Assembly (NCBI GenBank): GCA_965199825.1 | Contig: CBDATP010000002.1 | Span: 1-14,518 of the forward strand | DNA from: Bdellovibrionales bacterium | GTDB taxonomy: Bacteria; Bdellovibrionota; Bdellovibrionia; Bdellovibrionales; UBA1609 | Length of the DNA stretch: 14,518 bases | Reading direction: 5' to 3' | Shown here: piece by piece, positions 1-14,518 of the stretch | Layout of the letters: the number at the start of each line of letters is the position of its first letter | How positions within the stretch are numbered: the stretch's first letter is position 1 | Made by a program: the position numbers and the translations under genes | Notes under the pieces: generated by a model | The model's database searches: none | What the model was told of the DNA's origin: nothing | Seen by the model: the letters and a program-made list of their open reading frames with translations, nothing else

Positions 1-248
1 TATGAGAGGTCATGTTCGGGTGGTCGAGGGGTTGTGTGCATGTTATGACAGATATGCCGCGGAAAAGCCAACAGTTGATGGCCTGAAGGCTCGACTAGTC
101 TGTCGTTGAGGTCGATGTTGATGACCTAAAGGAGATCAGGATTGAAGGGAAGACATTGGGTTAGTTCTGGTCTACAATAGGGGGGGGGGATTGAGGGAGA
201 GAACGGGTTAGAAGAGTTGTAGAAGTGATGCTATGCCAGCGATAGATA
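1..248 (+). ncRNA. 3' part of putative structured RNA B (truncated by window start)
   Basis: Homologous to 3392-3634 and ends in the right arm of the 22-bp inverted repeat (227-248). Confidence 0.45.
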
Positions 249-484
249 GATAGCCTGTGCTCGGGATGACCAACCAACATCTCTTTCTCTCTCATTAAGT
301 TTAGAATGAAAATTTTAAAAATTGAAAAACTTAATTGTTACTTTCTACAAAAAACTAACTAAAATTTTCAAACTTTTAATAGAGAATTTTCGATGAAAAT
401 TTACATAAGAACAATGGACAGGTAGGCTAGTGGATTTTTGAAAAATGTAAGACTTACAAAATGGGTTTTTGGATAGAAGAAAAA

Positions 485-703
485 GTTGAGTTTGGAATTA
501 GTGGTTGAAATTTTGTGGAAAGCTTGGGGTAGGGGTGGACTAGTGCGGAATGTAAGGACAAGTTATTTTGTCAACGGGTTAGGTTTCTAGAGGGGTAAAT
601 GTGGGGGAAAATAAAATTAAGACAATTGTTATTTAATGTTTTGTAGTATTTATTGAGTTGTAGTTAATGGTAAAGTGATTCCAATCGAAGAAATGAATGG
701 TCG
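485..703 (+). promoter_or_regulatory. Shared ~219-bp element, copy at the start of module A (candidate promoter/5' leader)
   Basis: Colinear with 1815-2011. Other A-type copies at 3871-4089, 7301-7519, 10760-10978 and 14220-14434. The regulatory role is inferred from position only. Confidence 0.45.
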
Positions 704-1721
704 CACCTAACCTATGCCCTCCCGCCCACCCGAGGTTCGATGCTGTGCTATCAAAGCGGAGCCAATTATCATTCGGTTCGAAATCGGTTCCAATTGCTGT
801 TAACTTTGGTATCGCTTCAATCGAATCCAATCCATTTGTCTTCGCTTCCATCCAACTGACCGCTGGCTGTAACTGAAACTGTTAACCCCCTGTGCTAAGC
901 CTAAACCTATTCCTTATTACCCCCCACCCGTACCTTACTTACTATTTAACCGACTCGACCAGACATAGAGTTGTGAAGACAACAGACAACAGTAAAATAA
1001 ATCACTGACCGTTGGATATGTGGACAATTGGTGCCGAGAAAAGTGCTCTAAGCTAAAGCTAAGCTAAAGGTAGGGAAGCCGTAACTCTAACTAATGCTCG
1101 AACAGCCGATAGACTGGCCAACACAGTCGGTCCGCTTTGTCATCTGACCGCTTTTACCCGTAGCTAACCCTAACATCCTGTGTGTAAGCTATCCCTAAGA
1201 TTATCGGGTGACGATCAGAACCGAACATCACTTCATCCCTGCACTGGTCGGCCAGCGATGGCTGTGAGCTATGTTCCTGTTGACCTAATCTAAACCCTAA
1301 CCAGTGGCCTAACCTAACAATTCTATCTATCCCTAAGCCAATCAATAGCACTGTCAGCGATAGACAACCCGAAGGAGTCTGTCCATCCATGGTGCGGTGC
1401 TGTTCGTCCTACAACTCGATGTCTGGTACACCCCACCCTATCTCTAATAACCCTCCCGCCCCTACCCCTAACTCTTCTTCGGCATCGGTCTTCGATCTTC
1501 AGCCATTCGGTTTGCTTGTCTTGACATCCGATGTTTTGCCAGCCCATCGAAGCGAGTGAAGTTAGTATTAGTTTTTGCCACCAATAGTTGCTCGTAGAAG
1601 GAAGTTTGCGAGTGACTACAACTCTCATGACCACCATTGGGAACAGATACGGCCAATTCTTCGCCGGACGAAAACCAGATTCATCTAACTAACGACTTTC
1701 CCAAACACAATCATTGTTGTC
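621..1721 (+). ncRNA. Putative large structured RNA A (~1.1 kb), unit 1
   Basis: Nested helices 621-643/1702-1721 (imperfect), 736-742/1545-1551, 752-760/1131-1139, 784-796/1025-1037 and 850-856/1011-1017. Local stems 1143-1160/1205-1219, 1344-1354/1394-1404, 1481-1488/1528-1535 and 1585-1598/1605-1618. Non-Watson-Crick pairs are mostly G-U on +. No long ORF. Ends are approximate. Confidence 0.5.
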
Positions 1722-1726
1722 AATAA

Positions 1727-1746
1727 TTTTTTTCGTCAATTTTTTT
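1727..1746 (+). terminator. Two T7 tracts right after the closing stem of module A (possible oligo-T terminator)
   Basis: T runs at 1727-1733 and 1740-1746 follow the 3' strand of the terminal stem and are present in all full units. They lie in an AT-rich spacer, so may be chance. Confidence 0.25.
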
Positions 1747-1814
1747 AAAATTCAAAGTTACAATATTTCACTTTATTTTCATGCTTTCAAAACATAAATA
1801 TTGACCTGGCTTGA

Positions 1815-2011
1815 GTTGACATTGGAATTGGAGTGAGAAATTTGGTAGAAAGCTGGGGGCAGGGCTGGACTAGTGCGGAATTAAAGGGCAAATTATTATG
1901 TCAACGGGTTATGTTTCTAGAAGGGTAAATGTGGGCGAAAATAAAATTTAGTCGCATTTATTTAGTTTTAGTGATTAGCAAATTAATTCCAACCGAAGAA
2001 ACAAATGGTCG
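1815..2011 (+). promoter_or_regulatory. Shared element, copy upstream of module B
   Basis: Paralog of 485-703. This copy carries a 22-bp deletion near 1948 relative to the copies at 5223-5441, 8682-8900 and 12141-12360. Confidence 0.45.
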
Positions 2012-2071
2012 GAGAAGTAATACACAATTTTATTAAGTCTTTTCGGGTCTCTAGGGGGGTTACGAATTGGC

Positions 2072-2194
2072 CGAAATTTCGATATTAGCCTTATTTAAAG
2101 TTTAATTACACTAAATTAAAGTTAATTTAGCTAAATTATGATTAAATCCAGTTAAATTAATGGTTAAATTCACTTCAAGATCCGAAAATTTTCG
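2072..2194. repeat. AT-rich ~10-bp-phased TAA(A/T)T array flanked by two palindromes
   Basis: Decamers tttaattaca/ctaaattaaa/gttaatttag/ctaaattatg/attaaatcca/gttaaattaa (2101-2160). Palindromes CGAAATTTCG (2072-2081) and CGAAAATTTTCG (2183-2194). Present in every full unit. Confidence 0.6.
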
Positions 2195-2242
2195 ATTCTA
2201 TGGGAGTTTCATGGGAACCCCCTTTTAGCCATCTCTAATCCA

Positions 2243-2264
2243 TATCTATCGCTGGCATAGCATC
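2243..2264 (+). repeat. Left arm of 22-bp perfect inverted repeat TATCTATCGCTGGCATAGCATC
   Basis: Exact reverse complement of 3613-3634. Other pairs: 5673-5694/7043-7064, 9132-9153/10502-10523, 12592-12613/13962-13983. Confidence 0.95.
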
Positions 2265-3612
2265 GGTGAAAATCTAAAACCTGAGGAAAGAATGGGTTAA
2301 ATGTGATACATACCGTTACATTACCTCTGACAAAGTCAGTCCCCAATAAGCGTCCCATGGCTTCAGTGATAATATGCCGGAAACCAATGCAGACATTAAG
2401 TACAACCAATAACGAGGAACCCAAATGAAGAGCGGACGGAAATATTGTCCGCTGACCAAAGGTTGTCGGTGTGTCGAGTGTGCGATACTATCGGTGAGTC
2501 TATGACTGCTGCCGTTTCCACGTCCGGCGCATAGCCAGACGGGCAGAGGACAGGTCTTCGTCGGGTCGTCGTTGACTAAGTGCACACTCTTACACAACCG
2601 AACAACCAGTGGCCACTCACCATTGAGTGACACACCAATGTGGAGCCGAGCCGGTGATACATCTGTAGATTCGGTGACTCGTGTCGTACGTCGAGTGCTG
2701 ATGAGGCGAACGTCGGCGCAGAGGACAGTCATTGTCGGTCATCTGGCGATGGGTCGGACATCGGTCTCGCTGGTGATCACCAATGGTTGACGGACTCCAA
2801 ATCCAATCCAACCCAACATTTGTGTCCCCCGCAAAGGAAGACACACTGGCTCTCAGCGCACATCACCACATTCACCACAGAACAACATATCAGAGACGCT
2901 GTTCCTTGTCTACTCTGACTAACCGACCGACACCCTCTGTGTCCAGAGCCCAGTGAGACCAATGTTCTCTATTTTAAGAGACAATGGCAGACCGTTGGAC
3001 CGGCCGACAAGTGTTGGCAGATGGTAGTGGTCGTCCCTACCGGTCCAGTTTCGCTGCTTATCATATTCTTTTTGTTGCTCACTTTAAACCAGTGTCCAAA
3101 TGGCGTGAGCTTTGGTCTGTGGTCCCAATAATATCCAAGTGCACACCCCTTATACCTTTAGCCCCTCGACTATCGCCATCCTACCTATCAGAGCCGATGT
3201 TGTTGGCCAAAAAGAAGTGGTCTCACCGGTTCCAATTGGTTCATTGACCACCTCTTGCATATATGTCGAGCTCCCATACTTGTGGCAGAAAGTGTGGACA
3301 GAGGCGGGAGACTTTGCGGATTTGGTTATAGCCGTGGCAGATCGGCTTCGCTACTTCTTAGGCGACCCTATCTTGTCACCCCTCCAGATGGTATGAGAGG
3401 TCATGTTCGGGTGGTCGAGGGGTTGTGTGCATGTTATGACAGATATGTCGCGGAAAAGCCGACAGTTGATGGCCTGAAGGCTCGACTAGTCTGTCGTTGA
3501 GGTCGATGTTGATGACCTAAAGGAGATCAGGATTGAAGGGAAGACATTGGGTTAGTTCTGGTCTGCAATAGGGGGATTGGGGGAGAGAACGGGTTAGAAG
3601 AGTTGTAGAAGT

Positions 3613-3634
3613 GATGCTATGCCAGCGATAGATA
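3613..3634 (-). repeat. Right arm of 22-bp perfect inverted repeat
   Basis: GATGCTATGCCAGCGATAGATA, the reverse complement of 2243-2264. Confidence 0.95.
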
Positions 3635-4006
3635 GATAGCCTGTGCTCGGGATGACCAACCAACATCTCTTTCTCTCTCATTCAGTTTAGAATGAAAATT
3701 TTAAAAATTGAAAAACTTAATTGTTACTTTCTACAAAAAACTAATTAAAATTTTCAAACTTTTAAGAGAGAATTTTCGATGAAAATTTACATAAGAACAA
3801 TGGACAGGTAGGCTAGTGGATTTTTGAAAAATGTAAGACTTACAAAATGAGTTTTTGGATAGAAGAAAAAGTTGAGTTTGGAATTTGTGGTTGAAATTTT
3901 GTGGAAAGCTTGGGGCAGGGCTGGACTAGTGCGGAATGTAAGGACAAGTTATTTTGTCAAGGGGTTAGGTTTCTAGAGGGGTAAATGTGGGGGAAAATAA
4001 AATTAA

Positions 4007-5129
4007 GACAATTGTGATTTAATGTTTTGTAGTATTTATTGAGTTGTAGTTAATGGTAAAGTGATTCCAATCGAAGAAATGAATGGTCGCACCTAACCTA
4101 TGCCCTCCCGCCCACCCGAGGTTCGATGCTGTGCTATCAAAGCGGAGCCAATTATCATTCGGTTCGAAATCGGTTCCAATTGCTGTTAACTTTGGTATCG
4201 CTTCAATCGAATCCAATCCATTTGTCTTCGCTTCCATCCAACTGACCGCTGGCTGTAACTGAAACTGTTAACCCCCTGTGCTAAGCCTAAACCTATTCCT
4301 TATTACCCCCCACCCGTACCTTACTTACTATTTAACCGACTCGACCAGACATAGAGTTGTGAAGACAACAGACAACAGTAAAATAAATCACTGACCGTTG
4401 GATATGTGGACAATTGGTGCCGAGAAAAGTGCTCTAAGCTAAAGCTAAGCTAAAGGTAGGGAAGCCGTAACTCTAACTAATGCTCGAACAGCCGATAGAC
4501 TGGCCAACACAGTCGGTCCGCTTTGTCATCTGACCGCTTTTACCCGTAGCTAACCCTAACATCCTGTGTGTAAGCTATCCCTAAGATTATCGGGTGACGA
4601 TCAGAACCGAACATCACTTCATCCCTGCACTGGTCGGCCAGCGATGGCTGTGAGCTATGTTCCTGTTGACCTAATCTAAACCCTAACCAGTGGCCTAACC
4701 TAACAATTCTATCTATCCCTAAGCCAATCAATAGCACTGTCAGCGATAGACAACCCGAAGGAGTCACCTGTCCATCCATGGTGCGGTGCTGTTCGTCCTA
4801 CAACTCGATGTCTGGTACACCCCACCCTATCTCTAACCCTCTAACCCTCCCGCCCCTACCCCTAACTCTTCTTCGGCATCGGTCTTCGATCTTCAGCCAT
4901 TCGGTTTGCTTGTCTTGACATCCGATGTTTTGCCAGCCCATCGAAGCGAGTGAAGTTAGTATTAGTTTTTGCCACCAATAGTTGCTAGGAGGCGTAGAAG
5001 GAAGTTTGCGAGTGACTACAACTCTCATGACCACCATTGGGAACAGATACGGCCAATTCTTCGCCGGACGAAAAACAGATTCATCTAAACCGATATCTAA
5101 CGACTTTCCCAAACACAATCATTGTTGTC
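4007..5129 (+). ncRNA. Putative structured RNA A, unit 2
   Basis: Near-identical copy of 621-1721 with four short extra segments (3, 5, 6 and 8 nt). Confidence 0.5.
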
Positions 5130-5672
5130 AATAATTTTTTTCGTCAATTTTTTTAAAATTCAAAGTTACAATATTTCACTTTATTTTCATGCTTTCAAAA
5201 CATAAATATTGACCTGGCTTGAGTTGACATTGGAATTGGAGTGGGAAATTTGGTAGAAAGCTGGGGGCAGGGCTGGACTAGTGCGGAATTAAAGGGCAAA
5301 TTATTATGTCAACGGGTTATGTTTCTAGAAGGGTAAATGTGGGCGAAAATAAAATTATGAAAATTATTATTTGTTGTTTAGTCGCATTTATTTAGTTTTA
5401 GTGATTAGCAAATTAATTCCAACCGAAGAAACAAATGGTCGGAGAAGTAATACACAACTTTATTAAGTCTTTTCGGGTCTCTAGGGGGGTTACGAATTGG
5501 CCGAAATTTCGATATTAGCCTTATTTAAAGTTTAATTACACTAAATTAAAGTTAATTTAGCTAAATTATGATTAAATCCAGTTAAATTAATGGTTAAATT
5601 CACTTCAAGATCCGAAAATTTTCGATTCTATGGGAGTTTCATGGGAACCCCCTTTTAGCCATCTCTAATCCA

Positions 5673-7064
5673 TATCTATCGCTGGCATAGCATCGGTGAA
5701 AATCTAAAACCTGAGGAAAGAATGGGTTAAATGTGATACATACCGTTACATTACCTCTGACAAAGTCAGTCCCCAATAAGCGTCCCATGGCTTCAGTGAT
5801 AATATGCCGGAAACCAATGCAGACATTAAGTACAACCAATAACGAGGAACCCAAATGAAGAGCGGACGGAAATATTGTCCGCTGACCAAAGGTTGTCGGT
5901 GTGTCGAGTGTGCGATACTATCGGTGAGTCTATGACTGCTGCCGTTTCCACGTCCGGCGCATAGCCAGACGGGCAGAGGACAGGTCTTCGTCGGGTCGTC
6001 GTTGACTAAGTGCACACTCTTACACAACCGAACAACCAGTGGCCACTCACCATTGAGTGACACACCAATGTGGAGCCGAGCCGGTGATACATCTGTAGAT
6101 TCGGTGACTCGTGTCGTACGTCGAGTGCTGATGAGGCGAACGTCGGCGCAGAGGACAGTCATTGTCGGTCATCTGGCGATGGGTCGGACATCGGTCTCGC
6201 TGGTGATCACCAATGGTTGACGGACTCCAAATCCAATCCAACCCAACATTTGTGTCCCCCGCAAAGGAAGACACACTGGCTCTCAGCGCACATCACCACA
6301 TTCACCACAGAACAACATATCAGAGACGCTGTTCCTTGTCTACTCTGACTAACCGACCGACACCCTCTGTGTCCAGAGCCCAGTGAGACCAATGTTCTCT
6401 ATTTTAAGAGACAATGGCAGACCGTTGGACCGGCCGACAAGTGTTGGCAGATGGTAGTGGTCGTCCCTACCGGTCCAGTTTCGCTGCTTATCATATTCTT
6501 TTTGTTGCTCACTTTGAACCAGTGTCCAAATGGCGTGAGCTTTGGTCTGTGGTCCCAATAATATCCAAGTGCACACCCCTTATACCTTTAGCCCCTCGAC
6601 TATCGCCATCCTACCTATCAGAGCCGATGTTGTTGGCCAAAAAGAAGTGGTCTCACCGGTTCCAATTGGTTCATTGACCACCTCTTGCATATATGTCGAG
6701 CTCCCATACTTGTGGCAGAAAGTGTGGACAGAGGCGGGAGACTTTGCGGATTTGGTTATAGCCGTGGCAGATCGGCTTCGCTACTTCTTAGGCGACCCTA
6801 TCTTGTCACCCCTCCAGATGGTATGAGAGGTCATGTTCGGGTGGTCGAGGGGTTGTGTGCATGTTATGACAGATATGTCGCGGAAAAGCCGACAGTTGAT
6901 GGCCTGAAGGCTCGACTAGTCTGTCGTTGAGGTCGATGTTGATGACCTAAAGGAGATCAGGATTGAAGGGAAGACATTGGGTTAGTTCTGGTCTGCAATA
7001 GGGGGATTGGGGGAGAGAACGGGTTAGAAGAGTTGTAGAAGTGATGCTATGCCAGCGATAGATA
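5673..7064 (+). ncRNA. Putative structured RNA B, copy 2
   Basis: Near-identical to 2243-3634 and bounded by the 22-bp inverted repeat. Confidence 0.55.
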
Positions 7065-7436
7065 GATAGCCTGTGCTCGGGATGACCAACCAACATCTCT
7101 TTCTCTCTCATTCAGTTTAGAATGAAAATTTTAAAAATTGAAAAACTTAATTGTTACTTTCTACAAAAAACTAATTAAAATTTTCAAACTTTTAAGAGAG
7201 AATTTTCGATGAAAATTTACATAAGAACAATGGACAGGTAGGCTAGTGGATTTTTGAAAAATGTAAGACTTACAAAATGAGTTTTTGGATAGAAGAAAAA
7301 GTTGAGTTTGGAATTTGTGGTTGAAATTTTGTGGAAAGCTTGGGGCAGGGCTGGACTAGTGCGGAATGTAAGGACAAGTTATTTTGTCAAGGGGTTAGGT
7401 TTCTAGAGGGGTAAATGTGGGGGAAAATAAAATTAA

Positions 7437-8588
7437 GACAATTGTGATTTAATGTTTTGTAGTATTTATTGAGTTGTAGTTAATGGTAAAGTGATTCCAA
7501 TCGAAGAAATGAATGGTCGCACCTAACCTATGCCCTCCCGCCCACCCGAGGTTCGATGCTGTGCTATCAAAGCGGAGCCAATTATCATTCGGTTCGAAAT
7601 CGGTTCCAATTGCTGTTAACTTTGGTATCGCTTCAATCGAATCCAATTCATTTGTGTTCGCTTCCATCGAATCGAGTCCATTTGTCTTCGCTTCCATCCA
7701 ACTGACCGCTGGCTGTAACTGAAACTGTTAACCCCCTGTGCTAAGCCTAAACCTATTCCTTATTGCCCCCCACCCGTACCTTACTTACTATTTAACCGAC
7801 TCGACCAGACATAGAGTTGTGAAGACAACAGACAACAGTAAAATAAATCACTGACCGTTGGATATGTGGACAATTGGTGCCGACAAAAGTGCTCTAAGCT
7901 AAAGCTAAGCTAAAGGTAGGGAAGCCGTAACTCTAACTAATGCTCAAACAGCCGATAGACTGGCCAACACAGTCGGTCCGCTTTGTCATCTGACCGCTTT
8001 TACCCGTAGCTAACCCTAACATCCTGTGTGTAAGCTATCCCTAAGATTATCGGGTGACGATCAGAACCGAACATCACTTCATCCCTGCACTGGTCGGCCA
8101 GCGATGGCTGTGAGCTATGTTCCTGTTGACCTAATCTAAACCCTAACCAGTGGCCTAACCTAACAATTCTATCTATCCCTAAGCCAATCAATAGCACTGT
8201 CAGCGATAGACAACCCGAAGGAGTCACCTGTCCATCCATGGTGCGGTGCTGTTCGTCCTACAACTCGATGTCTGGTACACCCCACCCTATCTCTAACCCT
8301 TTAACCCTCCCGCCCCTACCCCTAACTCTTCTTCGGCATCGGTCTTCGATCTTCAGCCATTCGGTTTGCTTGTCTTGACATCCGATGTTTTGCCAGCCCA
8401 TCGAAGCGAGTGAAGTTAGTATTAGTTTTTGCCACCAATAGTTGCTAGGAGACGTAGAAGGAAGTTTGCGATTGACTACAACTCTCATGACCACCATTGG
8501 GAACAGATACGGCCAATTCTTCGCCGGACGAAAACCAATTCATCTAAACCAAGACCTAACGACTTTCCCAAACACAATCATTGTTGTC
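7437..8588 (+). ncRNA. Putative structured RNA A, unit 3 (long allele with 30-bp duplication)
   Basis: Copy of module A with a 2x30-bp repeat at 7636-7695. Confidence 0.5.
7636..7695. repeat. 2 x 30-bp imperfect tandem repeat (also 11095-11154)
   Basis: ATCGAATCCAATTCATTTGTGTTCGCTTCC followed by ATCGAATCGAGTCCATTTGTCTTCGCTTCC. Units 1 and 2 have a single copy. Confidence 0.9.
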
Positions 8589-9131
8589 AATAATTTTTTT
8601 CGTCAATTTTTTTAAAATTCAAAGTTACAATATTTCACTTTATTTTCATGCTTTCAAAACATAAATATTGACCTGGCTTGAGTTGACATTGGAATTGGAG
8701 AAGGAAATTTGGTAGAAAGCTGGGGGCAGGGCTGGACTAGTGCGGAATTAAAGGGCAAATTATTATGTCAACGGGTTATGTTTCTAGAAGGGTAAATGTG
8801 GGCGAAAATAAAATTATGAAAATTATTATTTGTTGTTTAGTCGCATTTATTTAGTTTTAGTGATTAGCAAATTAATTCCAACCGAAGAAACAAATGGTCG
8901 GAGAAGTAATACACAACTTTATTAAGTCTTTTCGGGTCTCTAGGGGGGTTACGAATTGGCCGAAATTTCGATATTAGCCTTATTTAAAGTTTAATTACAC
9001 TAAATTAAAGTTAATTTAGCTAAATTATGATTAAATCCAGTTAAATTAATGGTTAAATTCACTTCAAGATCCGAAAATTTTCGATTCTATGGGAGTTTCA
9101 TGGGAACCCCCTTTTAGCCATCTCTAATCCA

Positions 9132-10523
9132 TATCTATCGCTGGCATAGCATCGGTGAAAATCTAAAACCTGAGGAAAGAATGGGTTAAATGTGATACAT
9201 ACCGTTACATTACCTCTGACAAAGTCAGTCCCCAATAAGCGTCCCATGGCTTCAGTGATAATATGCCGGAAACCAATGCAGACATTAAGTACAACCAATA
9301 ACGAGGAACCCAAATGAAGAGCGGACGGAAATATTGTCCGCTGACCAAAGGTTGTCGGTGTGTCGAGTGTGCGATACTATCGGTGAGTCTATGACTGCTG
9401 CCGTTTCCACGTCCGGCGCATAGCCAGACGGGCAGAGGACAGGTCTTCGTCGGGTCGTCGTTGACTAAGTGCACACTCTTACACAACCGAACAACCAGTG
9501 GCCACTCACCATTGAGTGACACACCAATGTGGAGCCGAGCCGGTGATACATCTGTAGATTCGGTGACTCGTGTCGTACGTCGAGTGCTGATGAGGCGAAC
9601 GTCGGCGCAGAGGACAGTCATTGTCGGTCATCTGGCGATGGGTCGGACATCGGTCTCGCTGGTGATCACCAATGGTTGACGGACTCCAAATCCAATCCAA
9701 CCCAACATTTGTGTCCCCCGCAAAGGAAGACACACTGGCTCTCAGCGCACATCACCACATTCACCACAGAACAACATATCAGAGACGCTGTTCCTTGTCT
9801 ACTCTGACTAACCGACCGACACCCTCTGTGTCCAGAGCCCAGTGAGACCAATGTTCTCTATTTTAAGAGACAATGGCAGACCGTTGGACCGGCCGACAAG
9901 TGTTGGCAGATGGTAGTGGTCGTCCCTACCGGTCCAGTTTCGCTGCTTATCATATTCTTTTTGTTGCTCACTTTAAACCAGTGTCCAAATGGCGTGAGCT
10001 TTGGTCTGTGGTCCCAATAATATCCAAGTGCACACCCCTTATACCTTTAGCCCCTCGACTATCGCCATCCTACCTATCAGAGCCGATGTTGTTGGCCAAA
10101 AAGAAGTGGTCTCACCGGTTCCAATTGGTTCATTGACCACCTCTTGCATATATGTCGAGCTCCCATACTTGTGGCAGAAAGTGTGGACAGAGGCGGGAGA
10201 CTTTGCGGATTTGGTTATAGCCGTGGCAGATCGGCTTCGCTACTTCTTAGGCGACCCTATCTTGTCACCCCTCCAGATGGTATGAGAGGTCATGTTCGGG
10301 TGGTCGAGGGGTTGTGTGCATGTTATGACAGATATGTCGCGGAAAAGCCGACAGTTGATGGCCTGAAGGCTCGACTAGTCTGTCGTTGAGGTCGATGTTG
10401 ATGACCTAAAGGAGATCAGGATTGAAGGGAAGACATTGGGTTAGTTCTGGTCTGCAATAGGGGGATTGGGGGAGAGAACGGGTTAGAAGAGTTGTAGAAG
10501 TGATGCTATGCCAGCGATAGATA
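9132..10523 (+). ncRNA. Putative structured RNA B, copy 3
   Basis: Near-identical to 2243-3634 and bounded by the 22-bp inverted repeat. Confidence 0.55.
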
Positions 10524-10895
10524 GATAGCCTGTGCTCGGGATGACCAACCAACATCTCTTTCTCTCTCATTCAGTTTAGAATGAAAATTTTAAAAATTGA
10601 AAAACTTAATTGTTACTTTCTACAAAAAACTAATTAAAATTTTCAAACTTTTAAGAGAGAATTTTCGATGAAAATTTACATAAGAACAATGGACAGGTAG
10701 GCTAGTGGATTTTTGAAAAATGTAAGACTTACAAAATGAGTTTTTGGATAGAAGAAAAAGTTGAGTTTGGAATTTGTGGTTGAAATTTTGTGGAAAGCTT
10801 GGGGCAGGGCTGGACTAGTGCGGAATGTAAGGACAAGTTATTTTGTCAAGGGGTTAGGTTTCTAGAGGGGTAAATGTGGGGGAAAATAAAATTAA

Positions 10896-12047
10896 GACAA
10901 TTGTGATTTAATGTTTTGTAGTATTTATTGAGTTGTAGTTAATGGTAAAGTGATTCCAATCGAAGAAATGAATGGTCGCACCTAACCTATGCCCTCCCGC
11001 CCACCCGAGGTTCGATGCTGTGCTATCAAAGCGGAGCCAATTATCATTCGGTTCGAAATCGGTTCCAATTGCTGTTAACTTTGGTATCGCTTCAATCGAA
11101 TCCAATTCATTTGTGTTCGCTTCCATCGAATCGAGTCCATTTGTCTTCGCTTCCATCCAACTGACCGCTGGCTGTAACTGAAACTGTTAACCCCCTGTGC
11201 TAAGCCTAAACCTATTCCTTATTGCCCCCCACCCGTACCTTACTTACTATTTAACCGACTCGACCAGACATAGAGTTGTGAAGACAACAGACAACAGTAA
11301 AATAAATCACTGACCGTTGGATATGTGGACAATTGGTGCCGACAAAAGTGCTCTAAGCTAAAGCTAAGCTAAAGGTAGGGAAGCCGTAACTCTAACTAAT
11401 GCTCAAACAGCCGATAGACTGGCCAACACAGTCGGTCCGCTTTGTCATCTGACCGCTTTTACCCGTAGCTAACCCTAACATCCTGTGTGTAAGCTATCCC
11501 TAAGATTATCGGGTGACGATCAGAACCGAACATCACTTCATCCCTGCACTGGTCGGCCAGCGATGGCTGTGAGCTATGTTCCTGTTGACCTAATCTAAAC
11601 CCTAACCAGTGGCCTAACCTAACAATTCTATCTATCCCTAAGCCAATCAATAGCACTGTCAGCGATAGACAACCCGAAGGAGTCACCTGTCCATCCATGG
11701 TGCGGTGCTGTTCGTCCTACAACTCGATGTCTGGTACACCCCACCCTATCTCTAACCCTTTAACCCTCCCGCCCCTACCCCTAACTCTTCTTCGGCATCG
11801 GTCTTCGATCTTCAGCCATTCGGTTTGCTTGTCTTGACATCCGATGTTTTGCCAGCCCATCGAAGCGAGTGAAGTTAGTATTAGTTTTTGCCACCAATAG
11901 TTGCTAGGAGACGTAGAAGGAAGTTTGCGATTGACTACAACTCTCATGACCACCATTGGGAACAGATACGGCCAATTCTTCGCCGGACGAAAAACAATTC
12001 ATCTAAACCAAGACCTAACGACTTTCCCAAACACAATCATTGTTGTC
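10896..12047 (+). ncRNA. Putative structured RNA A, unit 4 (long allele)
   Basis: Near-identical to 7437-8588. Confidence 0.5.
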
Positions 12048-12591
12048 AATAATTTTTTTCGTCAATTTTTTTAAAATTCAAAGTTACAATATTTCACTTT
12101 ATTTTCATGCTTTCAAAACATAAATATTGACCTGGCTTGAGTTGACATTGGAATTGGAGTGAGGAAATTTGGTAGAAAGCTGGGGGCAGGGCTGGACTAG
12201 TGCGGAATTAAAGGGCAAATTATTATGTCAACGGGTTATGTTTCTAGAAGGGTAAATGTGGGCGAAAATAAAATTATGAAAATTATTATTTGTTGTTTAG
12301 TCGCATTTATTTAGTTTTAGTGATTAGCAAATTAATTCCAACCGAAGAAACAAATGGTCGGAGAAGTAATACACAACTTTATTAAGTCTTTTCGGGTCTC
12401 TAGGGGGGTTACGAATTGGCCGAAATTTCGATATTAGCCTTATTTAAAGTTTAATTACACTAAATTAAAGTTAATTTAGCTAAATTATGATTAAATCCAG
12501 TTAAATTAATGGTTAAATTCACTTCAAGATCCGAAAATTTTCGATTCTATGGGAGTTTCATGGGAACCCCCTTTTAGCCATCTCTAATCCA

Positions 12592-13983
12592 TATCTATCG
12601 CTGGCATAGCATCGGTGAAAATCTAAAACCTGAGGAAAGAATGGGTTAAATGTGATACATACCGTTACATTACCTCTGACAAAGTCAGTCCCCAATAAGC
12701 GTCCCATGGCTTCAGTGATAATATGCCGGAAACCAATGCAGACATTAAGTACAACCAATAACGAGGAACCCAAATGAAGAGCGGACGGAAATATTGTCCG
12801 CTGACCAAAGGTTGTCGGTGTGTCGAGTGTGCGATACTATCGGTGAGTCTATGACTGCTGCCGTTTCCACGTCCGGCGCATAGCCAGACGGGCAGAGGAC
12901 AGGTCTTCGTCGGGTCGTCGTTGACTAAGTGCACACTCTTACACAACCGAACAACCAGTGGCCACTCACCATTGAGTGACACACCAATGTGGAGCCGAGC
13001 CGGTGATACATCTGTAGATTCGGTGACTCGTGTCGTACGTCGAGTGCTGATGAGGCGAACGTCGGCGCAGAGGACAGTCATTGTCGGTCATCTGGCGATG
13101 GGTCGGACATCGGTCTCGCTGGTGATCACCAATGGTTGACGGACTCCAAATCCAATCCAACCCAACATTTGTGTCCCCCGCAAAGGAAGACACACTGGCT
13201 CTCAGCGCACATCACCACATTCACCACAGAACAACATATCAGAGACGCTGTTCCTTGTCTACTCTGACTAACCGACCGACACCCTCTGTGTCCAGAGCCC
13301 AGTGAGACCAATGTTCTCTATTTTAAGAGACAATGGCAGACCGTTGGACCGGCCGACAAGTGTTGGCAGATGGTAGTGGTCGTCCCTACCGGTCCAGTTT
13401 CGCTGCTTATCATATTCTTTTTGTTGCTCACTTTGAACCAGTGTCCAAATGGCGTGAGCTTTGGTCTGTGGTCCCAATAATATCCAAGTGCACACCCCTT
13501 ATACCTTTAGCCCCTCGACTATCGCCATCCTACCTATCAGAGCCGATGTTGTTGGCCAAAAAGAAGTGGTCTCACCGGTTCCAATTGGTTCATTGACCAC
13601 CTCTTGCATATATGTCGAGCTCCCATACTTGTGGCAGAAAGTGTGGACAGAGGCGGGAGACTTTGCGGATTTGGTTATAGCCGTGGCAGATCGGCTTCGC
13701 TACTTCTTAGGCGACCCTATCTTGTCACCCCTCCAGATGGTATGAGAGGTCATGTTCGGGTGGTCGAGGGGTTGTGTGCATGTTATGACAGATATGTCGC
13801 GGAAAAGCCGACAGTTGATGGCCTGAAGGCTCGACTAGTCTGTCGTTGAGGTCGATGTTGATGACCTAAAGGAGATCAGGATTGAAGGGAAGACATTGGG
13901 TTAGTTCTGGTCTGCAATAGGGGGATTGGGGGAGAGAACGGGTTAGAAGAGTTGTAGAAGTGATGCTATGCCAGCGATAGATA
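12592..13983 (+). ncRNA. Putative structured RNA B, copy 4
   Basis: Near-identical to 2243-3634 and bounded by the 22-bp inverted repeat. Confidence 0.55.
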
Positions 13984-14355
13984 GATAGCCTGTGCTCGGG
14001 ATGACCAACCAACATCTCTTTCTCTCTCATTCAGTTTAGAATGAAAATTTTAAAAATTGAAAAACTTAATTGTTACTTTCTACAAAAAACTAATTAAAAT
14101 TTTCAAACTTTTAAGAGAGAATTTTCGATGAAAATTTACATAAGAACAATGGACAGGTAGGCTAGTGGATTTTTGAAAAATGTAAGACTTACAAAATGAG
14201 TTTTTGGATAGAAGAAAAAGTTGAGTTTGGAATTTGTGGTTGAAATTTTGTGGAAAGCTTGGGGCAGGGCTGGACTAGTGCGGAATGTAAGGACAAGTTA
14301 TTTTGTCAAGGGGTTAGGTTTCTAGAGGGGTAAATGTGGGGGAAAATAAAATTAA

Positions 14356-14518
14356 GACAATTGTGATTGTTTTGTAGTATTTATTGAGTTGTAGTTAATG
14401 GTAAAGTGATTCCAATCGAAGAAATGAATGGTCGCACCTAACCTATGCCCTCCCGCCCACCCGAGGTTCGATGCTGTGCTATCAAAGCGGAGCCAATTAT
14501 CATTCGGTTCGAAATCGG
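14356..14518 (+). ncRNA. 5' part of putative RNA A, unit 5 (truncated by window end)
   Basis: Homologous to 621-787, with a 4-bp deletion near 14368. Confidence 0.4.

Follow-up and report, generated by a model that had tools for sequence, protein, structure and literature searches.

What is encoded by a tandem array that is devoid of long open reading frames (ORFs) and is filed in the genome assembly of a Bdellovibrionales bacterium? The window analyzed here is a whole contig of 14,518 nt (C3), for which a first-pass annotation had proposed a high-dosage system of two alternating RNAs of an unrecognised family. A multi-copy pair of this kind is the best reading and finds partial support in the conserved cores, the covariation within module B and the absence of an Rfam match, whereas the strand assigned to B and the strict alternation did not stand.

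Organization and origin of the array

The array consists of 4.2 tandem units of 3386, 3430, 3459 and 3460 bp that are mutually 99.6–99.9% identical, in agreement with the annotated repeat of ~3.4 kb, and the module sizes proposed for A and B were likewise recovered (Table 1). A search of JGI metagenomes with a 19-nt pattern of B matched one contig, the independent L005, which carries a homologous unit with A and B in this order. Alternation of the modules is not obligatory, as B without A also forms arrays in contig C4, whose B is 95% identical; repetition of the flank is trivial where B is arrayed alone. Over the arrays examined, unit lengths range from 2.1 to 3.4 kb.

Table 1. Coordinates of the array and its features in the window
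Feature	Position	Strand	Remarks
Tandem array	1..14518	no strand	fills contig C3 end to end; unit starts 488, 3874, 7304, 10763, 14223
A-type conserved flanking element	3878..4071	no strand	unit 2; also 492-685 etc.; same-orientation homology z 4.3-5.1
Module A, predicted RNA of ~1.07 kb	4041..5110	minus (weakly supported)	unit 2; other copies about 655-1700, 7471-8570, 10930-12030
A closing-stem arm	4041..4060	minus	pairs with 5005-5024, 18/20 pairs; one compensatory change; 30/31 in L005
A conserved core	4335..4830	minus	89% identical to L005; either strand folds with z between -3.0 and -3.7
A central rod	4478-4660	minus	within A core
A invariant block, 66 nt	4540-4605	minus	within A core
A four-G-run tract, quadruplex-like	4845..4862	minus	also in L005
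AT-rich spacer after A	5111..5229	no strand	47% identical to L005, the unconstrained level
Second flanking element with terminal ~70 nt of truncated A variant	5230..5461	no strand	previously annotated as second shared element
MITE-like insertion, right part of ~274 bp	5462..5667	no strand	whole in C4; absent from this site in L005
Module B, predicted structured RNA of ~1.43 kb	5668..7095	minus	conserved in L005; other copies 2238-3665, 9127-10554, 12587-14014
B closing stem, 3' arm	5673..5694	minus	22-bp perfect, pairs with 7043-7064; invariant in L005
B rod, ~560 nt, imperfect, branched tip	5770..6326	minus	many G-U/Watson-Crick and compensatory changes
AT-rich spacer after B	7110..7300	no strand	52% identical to L005 (shuffles: mean 49%, maximum 54%)

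The element reported to be shared by both modules is indeed present as two related ~220-bp copies per unit (75% alike in unit 1, 82% in unit 2), but the second joins what remains of a truncated A variant, its flank and its end, to half of a MITE-like insertion and is not B's own flank. The intact A variant is represented by a joint from 5462 to 4149 in runs X3 and X5. The MITE-like insertion exhibits ~13-bp imperfect inverted ends, a degenerate 7–8-bp target duplication (6/8 bases match) and an empty site in L005, and its AT-rich core recurs elsewhere in the host genome. It may be of hAT type, a superfamily marked by short TIRs and an 8-bp target duplication. Insertions of mobile DNA were located only outside the cores.

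A-type and B-type flanks are ~62% alike over 132 nt, and the A-type element shares motifs at fixed spacing with its B-type counterpart in C4 and L005; in L005, only half of the A-type element is present. Left flanks are homologous in the same orientation (Table 1), as are right flanks in three of five pairs (z 3.1–4.3), the other two right-flank comparisons being without significance. Given this parallel homology on either side, A and B would have arisen when an entire unit was duplicated long ago, and each would be its own transcription unit. Homology between the A and B cores did not reach significance (best E 0.064). The first part of the spacer after A is similar to B's right flank. If A is a minus-strand gene, the A-type element sits 3' of it, and we infer a 3'-end/terminator or a distal promoter element; the spacer after B would lie upstream of B if B, too, is on the minus strand.

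The array is almost certainly not bacterial and stems from a eukaryote co-binned with the bacterium. That the bacterium whose assembly holds it could own the array, as a plasmid or as a cluster of RNA genes, is suggested by this filing and by a similar GC content (44%), yet we regard this origin as highly improbable. The co-binned chromosome C1 has no match to the array, only 4 of 278 C1 windows fall below the array in tetranucleotide profile, and the remaining small contigs of the assembly are a Gypsy element and a Helitron. Among 108 other genomes of the family, three match over 30–61 nt, which is at chance level. Exact-pattern or BLAST searches, which distant homologues would escape, yielded no match among plasmids and phages, none to the A or B pattern in GTDB contigs, and 0, 0 and 3 matches in viral contigs, the three being chance-level stretches of 18–24 nt. 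Within its own assembly, a search with a nucleotide HMM retrieved C3 and C4 only. The co-binned, animal-type Gypsy element tracks the array over four runs. The host taxon rests on this co-occurring element, the named relatives of which come from arachnids and share just 33–47% identity: likely a small, lichen-dwelling animal, likely an invertebrate and probably a mite. Only 1 of 15 matches in a Helitron search was named, a distant fish protein. Repeats of such a host are concealed in a bacterial reference genome scored as 100% complete and 0.11% contaminated.

Sequence constraint, strand and predicted folding

Absence of a long ORF was borne out, the longest stop-to-stop frame covering 140 aa. 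Indels relative to L005 are mostly not multiples of three (23/26 in B, 9/11 in A), and codon periodicity was found in 1 of 16 blocks tested. An array of protein-coding genes was therefore rejected, as frame length, indels and periodicity reveal no conserved reading frame with third-position bias. Identity to L005 amounts to 89% in the A core and 84% in B, and drops in the spacers (Table 1). Invariant blocks are clustered in both modules (P=0.0015 for A; 0/2000 permutations for B). In this comparison of aligned sequences, the A and B cores and the left flanking elements were shown to be under constraint.

The closing stems of both modules and nested long-range helices described previously were recovered in the predicted folds. 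For B, the fold was predicted in one species and scored on the other in both directions, with L005 as the one diverged homologue on which all covariation tests rest. On the minus strand, changed pairs were kept in 28/40 (null 18.3, P=0.0007) and 18/24 cases (P=0.012), compared to 7/18 (P=0.47) and 6/18 (P=0.29) on the plus strand. For the rod half of B, RNAalifold returned -254 kcal/mol with a covariation term of -2.06 on the minus strand and -213 kcal/mol with +0.47 on the plus strand, and the structure conservation index is higher for the minus strand in 14/18 overlapping windows. In regional tests, for which rod and core regions were picked after viewing the fold, the plus strand of the rod passed in one direction (10/17, P=0.007). 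From these comparisons, the evolution of B on the minus strand was shown to preserve structure. The strand-specific retention of G-U but not A-C pairs in B over spans of 400–570 nt is what a single-stranded molecule, and not duplex DNA, would be expected to show. The predicted fold branches repeatedly and is interrupted by a bulge every few pairs.

A plus-strand G-U bias, as first annotated, was not confirmed: helices that allow G-U pairs number 28 on the plus and 40 on the minus strand, and the conserved pairing of B is on the latter. Some conserved G-U-rich helices do exist on the plus strand. Folding beyond shuffled controls holds for the whole of B (z -4.8 minus, -3.5 plus) and for the A core, but only 4 of 46 strand-windows of 300 nt reach z<=-2.

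Module A is only moderately structured. Its whole-length folding scores are z -1.7 (plus) and -0.2 (minus), and pair retention over the whole length is significant on neither strand (10/26, 10/25, 11/31, 13/54). Two G-U changes in the closing stem fit the plus strand, while in 11/13 overlapping windows the minus strand has the higher structure conservation index. The minus strand of A is enriched in UUAG (23 copies in A of unit 2 and 19 in A of L005, where shuffles give 7.0 and 5.8) and in UAGGG(A/U) (five in each, against 1.1 and 0.8), motifs reported as hnRNP A1 ligands (PMC5503513). On the comparative evidence, the plus strand originally predicted does not hold for B, and probably not for A either. 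Pairing between A and B was no better than in shuffles in all eight strand/species combinations.

Known families and competing explanations

None of the Rfam 15 covariance models matched the window at E<=1, and none matched C4, membership being defined as a covariance-model match at gathering score; at E<=10, sub-threshold matches were confined to the AT-rich flanks. The earlier observation was that no rDNA, 5S, SL RNA or U2 sequence is recognisable, and rRNA similarity was absent as well: the best BLAST hit to the C1 rRNA operon (E 0.05) falls in a spacer, and rDNA was rejected. Searches for tRNAs or tmRNA in the window and for an Sm site on the minus strand found none. A stretch near 5940-5960 (minus) resembling SRP helix 8 was discounted for its altered loop in L005 and lack of an Rfam match, and a branch-point/3' splice-site look-alike near 6990-7030 (minus) for the loss of its AG in L005. 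A or B as a DNA transposon delimited by the closing stem was dismissed, as no target duplication was seen and conservation extends past the stems.

Arrays of rDNA, 5S, SL RNA and U2 genes are known as homogenised head-to-tail units of high copy number with conserved cores, fast-evolving spacers and a fluid linkage of two genes. The array described here resembles them, being homogenised, head-to-tail and fluid in linkage, with conserved cores, fast spacers and a presumably high copy number. In contrast, A and B are kilobase-sized, unrelated and without an Rfam or rRNA match, and either module alone can form its own unit.

Several other readings have to be weighed. It is unlikely that A and B are small-RNA precursors (hairpin-RNA/endo-siRNA or miRNA-like), in which the B rod and the 22-bp stem would be diced and the array would serve dosage. 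Such precursors release phased 21–23-nt products from a long duplex. Drosophila hpRNA loci reportedly yield endo-siRNAs (PMC10317233), and the 22-bp perfect duplex invariant in L005, the long imperfect rod and invariant blocks of 20–66 nt are compatible with such a role. However, B is multibranched and often bulged instead of a long near-perfect inverted repeat, its wobble and compensatory changes retain shape and not guide sequence, and the cores match no miRNA family in Rfam. Rather improbable, too, are non-autonomous RNA-replicating elements, i.e., LARD/TRIM-like retroelements or genomic copies of a viroid-like RNA, whose conserved fold would let a helper reverse transcriptase package or replicate them. 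LARDs and TRIMs are ORF-less and structurally conserved at the RNA level, with LTR-internal-LTR arrays known from Cassandra TRIMs (PMC7215508), which parallels the flank-core-flank-core tandem seen here; both modules are rod-like with joined ends, and Gypsy elements are present in the host. Yet the flank types are only ~62% alike and no identical LTR pair, primer-binding site, 5S domain or dispersed insertions are in evidence. For iMet, the one primer compared, there is no exact tRNA site, and the two 2-mismatch matches per unit lie inside the modules, off the element edges. TG...CA ends (by eye) and similarity to the co-binned Gypsy contig were not found either. Only 3–14% of sequence continues into unlike DNA; the many-contig loose ends, among those listed, are at the MITE core, and in four runs few of those listed are at module borders. 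There is also no conserved hammerhead core and no Rfam ribozyme. Animal non-LTR retrozymes, described as ~170–400 nt with a type I hammerhead (PMC7229834), are likewise ORF-less tandem repeats in invertebrates yielding structured RNAs (here predicted); they were rejected, since the present modules of 1.1–1.4 kb have spacers and form units of 2.1–3.4 kb, and a single hammerhead-core-like string on the plus strand is lost in L005, with none on the minus strand.

A complex macrosatellite, constrained at the DNA level by chromatin or protein binding or telomere-like motifs, or shaped by uneven mutation, would need no functional RNA. A kilobase unit with turnover in copy number and arrangement, the weak folding of most windows and the richness of A in telomere-like CCTAA/CCCTAA motifs (10 CCTAA) are in line with it; the strand-specific retention of G-U pairs in B and the sharp contrast between cores and spacers make it improbable. 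It is very improbable that A is a plus-strand, telomerase-RNA-like molecule with the conserved 11-mer at 4550-4560, the complement of ~1.8 TTAGGG repeats, as template. This 11-mer lies inside the 66-nt invariant block and is retained in L005, but CTAAC occurs 10 times in A, so that such an 11-mer easily arises by chance, and it is partly paired in both folds, whereas a telomerase template is single-stranded and spans ~1.5 telomere repeats. No Rfam telomerase model matched at E<=10, a threshold that very divergent forms could escape, and neither pseudoknot, CR4/5 and H/ACA domains nor U-rich/A-rich pseudoknot strands downstream (by eye) were found. The remaining evidence leans to the minus strand, and telomerase RNA genes are normally single-copy.

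A candidate pair of abundant RNAs

By a slight balance of probability, the locus is best explained as a pair of conserved non-coding modules, repeated in tandem and likely from a small invertebrate, that probably encodes two abundant minus-strand RNAs predicted to serve as protein scaffolds or decoys. B would be a folded RNA of 1.4 kb and A a UUAG-rich RNA of 1.1 kb, with the terminal stems clamping or defining the RNA ends. A copy number of roughly a hundred or more would provide dosage, and concerted evolution would keep the copies uniform. As counter-evidence, the conserved fixed-spacing element looks like a promoter, although its position relative to minus-strand cores is 3'.

Neither a protein partner nor a target or host gene came to light; the function of A and B is argued by analogy. 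The Dicer decoy rncs-1 has a rod with branched ends, and by analogy the long imperfect rod of B may bind dsRNA-binding proteins. In C. elegans, rncs-1 is a long non-coding RNA in which a duplex rod predominates (PMC4408787); the predicted B RNA shares this dominant rod but exceeds rncs-1 in size and in bulging, has several domains, and is encoded in many copies arrayed alongside a partner module. Module A might similarly bind hnRNP A/B-type proteins through its UAG motifs. In Drosophila, the non-coding architectural lncRNA hsr-omega (93D) keeps repeated UAG-containing motifs despite sequence turnover, proposed to be hnRNP landing sites (10.1101/695486), and the conserved UUAG and UAGGG(A/U) motifs of A in both species recall this arrangement. 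Architectural RNAs of the hsr-omega type are stress-induced, nuclear and bound by hnRNPs. The hsr-omega gene is a single locus that contains an internal repeat, an intron and a miRNA, whereas the array repeats whole ~1-kb genes; and the ATAGGTAGG nonamer, present multiple times in the internal repeat of hsr-omega, has one exact copy per unit here, in B and not in A, and is altered in L005.

To our knowledge, animal long non-coding RNAs with structural covariation across species are rare, and kilobase RNA genes in homogenised amplified arrays are mainly those of rDNA. A literature search, with subscription journals mostly outside its reach, returned no description of such an array. More tentatively, and in our estimate doubtful as yet, this would be, in an invertebrate lineage, a second amplified two-gene array besides rDNA, producing a kilobase-sized structured RNA pair in bulk as the RNA core of an undescribed RNP or nuclear body, possibly involved in the survival of desiccation or stress by animals living in lichens. 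If true, a new RNA pair with a copy number of about a hundred or more would point to an abundant, undescribed RNP in a neglected group of invertebrates.

A constrained, non-coding tandem array

The window comprises 4.2 tandem units of 3386, 3430, 3459 and 3460 bp which, short local duplications apart, are 99.6-99.9% identical, in agreement with the first-pass annotation; the array is real and beyond chance. Each unit contains two related elements of ~220 bp, two GC-richer modules (A and B) and two AT-rich spacers. The closing stems described for the module ends were recovered as a perfect 22-bp inverted repeat joining the ends of B and an imperfect 20-bp inverted repeat joining those of A. A proposed search of the window against Rfam gave zero matches at E<=1, and no family attained its gathering score when the listing was widened to E<=10; ARAGORN found no tRNA or tmRNA in the window. 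By itself, this organization resembles known RNA-gene arrays.

A homologous unit is present in L005, an independent JGI metagenome contig whose ends repeat over 121 bp and whose unit is therefore 3201 bp long, with A followed by B in the same orientation as in the window. Between the two sequences, module A is 89% identical in its core and 61-69% in its outer parts, module B is 84% identical and the spacers are 47% and 52% identical (shuffles of the second spacer: mean 49%, maximum 54%). The B-type flank of C4, a B-only array in the same assembly, is 71% identical to that of L005. Identical runs of at least 20 nt are in excess in A (P=0.0015) and in B (0/2000 permutations). The longest stop-to-stop frame in the window is 140 aa, most indels would disrupt a reading frame (9 of 11 in A, 23 of 26 in B), and codon periodicity was found in one of 16 tested blocks, so that the earlier claim of modules lacking a long ORF holds. 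The conservation of the cores relative to the spacers, the clustered identity and the frame-breaking indels together indicate that the cores are constrained and non-coding, and the feature is conserved across what seem to be two species. Two further conserved motifs, TGACCG-centred in A and CUAACCC-plus-pyrimidine in B, are included in the table.

Positions of features in the window, in its homologue L005 and in stretches (L002-L004) of contigs of the same assembly
Feature	Sequence	Positions	Remarks
Module A, unit 2	window	4041-5110	~1.07 kb
Module B, unit 2	window	5668-7095	~1.43 kb
TGACCG-centred motif, three copies in A	window	4243-4252, 4390-4401, 4530-4540	all retained in L005
Conserved 11-mer in 66-nt invariant block of A	window	4550-4560	complement of ~1.8 TTAGGG repeats; minus strand reads UUAGGGUUAG
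A-variant flank and terminal ~70 nt	window	5230-5461	intact form is the joint 5462->4149 in runs X3 and X5
AT-rich palindromic insertion core	window	5490-5615	
B rod with branched tip	window	5770-6326	~560 nt
CUAACCC-plus-pyrimidine motif near both B ends	window, minus strand	7014-7030, 6973-6985, 5715-5730	retained in C4 and L005
Relative of insertion core	L005	2674-2785	inverted, in a different spacer
Gypsy element	L002	130-3993, 4575-6587, 7850-9973	pol, gag-like 707-aa ORF and extra 670-aa ORF without Pfam match
Helitron Rep-helicase	L003, minus strand	5036-12127	intact, 2363 aa; apparently within a tandem ~12.2-kb repeat
rRNA operon of bacterial chromosome	L004	6844-12251	one tRNA gene directly upstream of 16S, another in the 16S-23S spacer

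Structure and strand of the two modules

Local folding is mostly ordinary, as only 4 of 46 strand-windows of 300 nt reached z<=-2. Whole-module folding of B gave z -3.5 on the plus and -4.8 on the minus strand (18 shuffles each). Pair retention was scored by folding one species alone and asking how many of its pairs with p>=0.9 survive in the other; the null redrew the substituted letters. On the minus strand, 28/40 changed pairs (null 18.3, P=0.0007) and 18/24 (P=0.012) were kept, compared with a non-significant 7/18 and 6/18 on the plus strand, which contradicts the plus-strand assignment of B in the first-pass annotation. Independent folds shared 209 pairs on the minus strand, 19 of them changed yet kept, versus 121 and 4 on the plus strand. 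The signal is centred on the rod, for whose half of the module RNAalifold gave -254 kcal/mol on the minus strand, where both partners had changed in 7 of 255 pairs, and -213 kcal/mol on the plus strand, where this held for 4 of 208. A post hoc test of the rod region yielded z -4.6/-6.9 with 22/28 and 22/30 pairs kept on the minus strand and z -1.9/-3.1 with 10/17 (P=0.007) and 5/19 on the plus strand. The non-rod half forms shorter helices (2/191 pairs doubly changed).

For A, whole-module folding gave z -1.7 (plus) and -0.2 (minus; 14 shuffles each), and whole-module pair retention was significant in none of the tests; the core reaches z -3.0 to -3.7 on either strand. In its central rod on the minus strand, 5/5 changed pairs were kept in one direction (P=0.03) and 3/6 in the other. 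Of 13 overlapping windows, 11 give the minus strand the higher structure conservation index. Two wobble substitutions in the closing stem point to the plus strand instead, and the original plus-strand assignment is left doubtful for this module. The minus strand of A is rich in UUAG (23 copies in the window and 19 in L005; shuffles 7.0 and 5.8), 14 of the 23 being position-identical in L005 against a background of 43%, and in UAGGG(A/U), with five copies per species (shuffles 1.1 and 0.8). A tract of four G-runs is common to both species. The 11-mer of A, which resembles a telomerase template, is probably a by-product of this motif content.

Rearranged flanks and a probable eukaryotic host

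The native left flank of B, as seen in L005 and C4, is unlike the second shared element of the window. Two related elements per unit do exist, as had been noted; the second, however, is an A-variant flank and end joined to the right-hand portion of a 274-bp insertion, which C4 contains in full and L005 lacks. The insertion carries short terminal inverted repeats and a degenerate duplication of its target site, and its core recurs in the sequencing runs as short tandem repeats and with many different flanks, pointing to dispersal in the host; mobile insertions are confined to the outside of the module cores. The left flanks of A-type and B-type units are homologous, with shared orientation (z 4.3-5.1) and fixed motif spacing, and the right flanks are homologous in three of five comparisons; the A and B cores show no detectable homology to each other (best E 0.064). 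From these sequence comparisons we infer that A and B stem from an ancient duplication as two independent units, and that rearrangement then produced A-B arrays and arrays of B alone. In the runs X1, X3 and X5, A has 1.4-4 times the depth of B, indicating additional A copies.

The assembly holds a 2.78-Mb bacterial chromosome with 38 tRNAs and an rRNA operon, and four small contigs: the window (contig C3 in its entirety), a Ty3/Gypsy element (C2), a Helitron (C5) and C4, with 2135-bp units of module B only, 95% identical to B of the window. All four resemble eukaryotic repeats, despite a contamination score of 0.11%. BLAST and a nucleotide HMM found no match of the unit in the chromosome, only 4 of 278 chromosomal windows fall below it in tetranucleotide profile, and 3 of 108 other family genomes match it over chance-level stretches of 30-61 nt only. 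The window stretch occurs, whole or in part, in 20 of 24 listed runs from nine studies, several being lichen metagenomes and the rest carrying differing organism labels, which fits a small co-sampled organism.

Depths were compared in four of the 24 runs. The main B contigs reach about 1800-2800 in X9, 189 in X1, 83-87 in X3 and 56 in X5; the Gypsy element fills 30, 14, 9 and 4 of 30 bins; its depth is 12-24, 2-4 and 2-3 in the first three runs, and X5 yields only short, unlike pieces. This agreement in rank order makes a single host likely. The depth ratio suggests that B is about a hundred times as numerous as the Gypsy element, a rough figure since contig depth does not equal copy number. 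Among 120 listed Gypsy matches, the named relatives are pseudoscorpion and spider proteins (33-47% identity); the closest ones listed (75-88%) carry no organism label. A mite is the best guess for the host against other micro-invertebrates, an evenly balanced call. X9 also carries a Gypsy variant without the extra-ORF region (joint 4007->6504). The Helitron Rep-helicase has 14 relatives for the part searched (best 54%), and its C-terminus shows OTU-like motifs by eye, for which Pfam gives no match.

A putative pair of RNA genes

Several known systems were compared with the array. Animal retrozymes measure 170-400 nt and carry a hammerhead (PMC7229834); A and B have neither that size nor a conserved hammerhead. 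LARD/TRIM elements share the ORF-less structured core and the ability to form arrays (PMC7215508), but the flanks of A and B are not identical LTRs, and no exact tRNA-iMet primer site was found. The comparisons of B with rncs-1 (PMC4408787) and of A with hsr-omega (10.1101/695486) are functional analogies and not family memberships. No description of such an array was found in the openly accessible literature, in searches that left aside unannotated eukaryote assemblies.

That the modules are functional RNA genes in some form is quite probable; a full-length scaffold or decoy role is slightly more likely than not. In such a scheme, transcription of each unit would begin at its AT-rich side and yield minus-strand RNA, and the conserved left element, which B of the window may have exchanged for that of A, could serve 3'-end formation or work as a distal element of the following gene. 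The terminal stems may guard or define the RNA ends. The bulged rod of B might attract dsRNA-binding proteins, much as has been suggested for rncs-1, and the UAG motifs of A might gather hnRNP A/B-type proteins, as proposed for hsr-omega; binding of such proteins to UAG-type sequences has been measured (PMC5503513). Since no A-B intermolecular pairing was found beyond chance, co-function of the two modules is argued solely from their linkage in two species. The constrained cores and the lack of an Rfam family lend partial support to the earlier view of two RNAs of an unrecognized family, with the strand amended. The window most likely represents two paired non-coding RNA genes, present in many copies in a small invertebrate and read from the minus strand, whose amplification would supply dosage and which fit none of the families tested.
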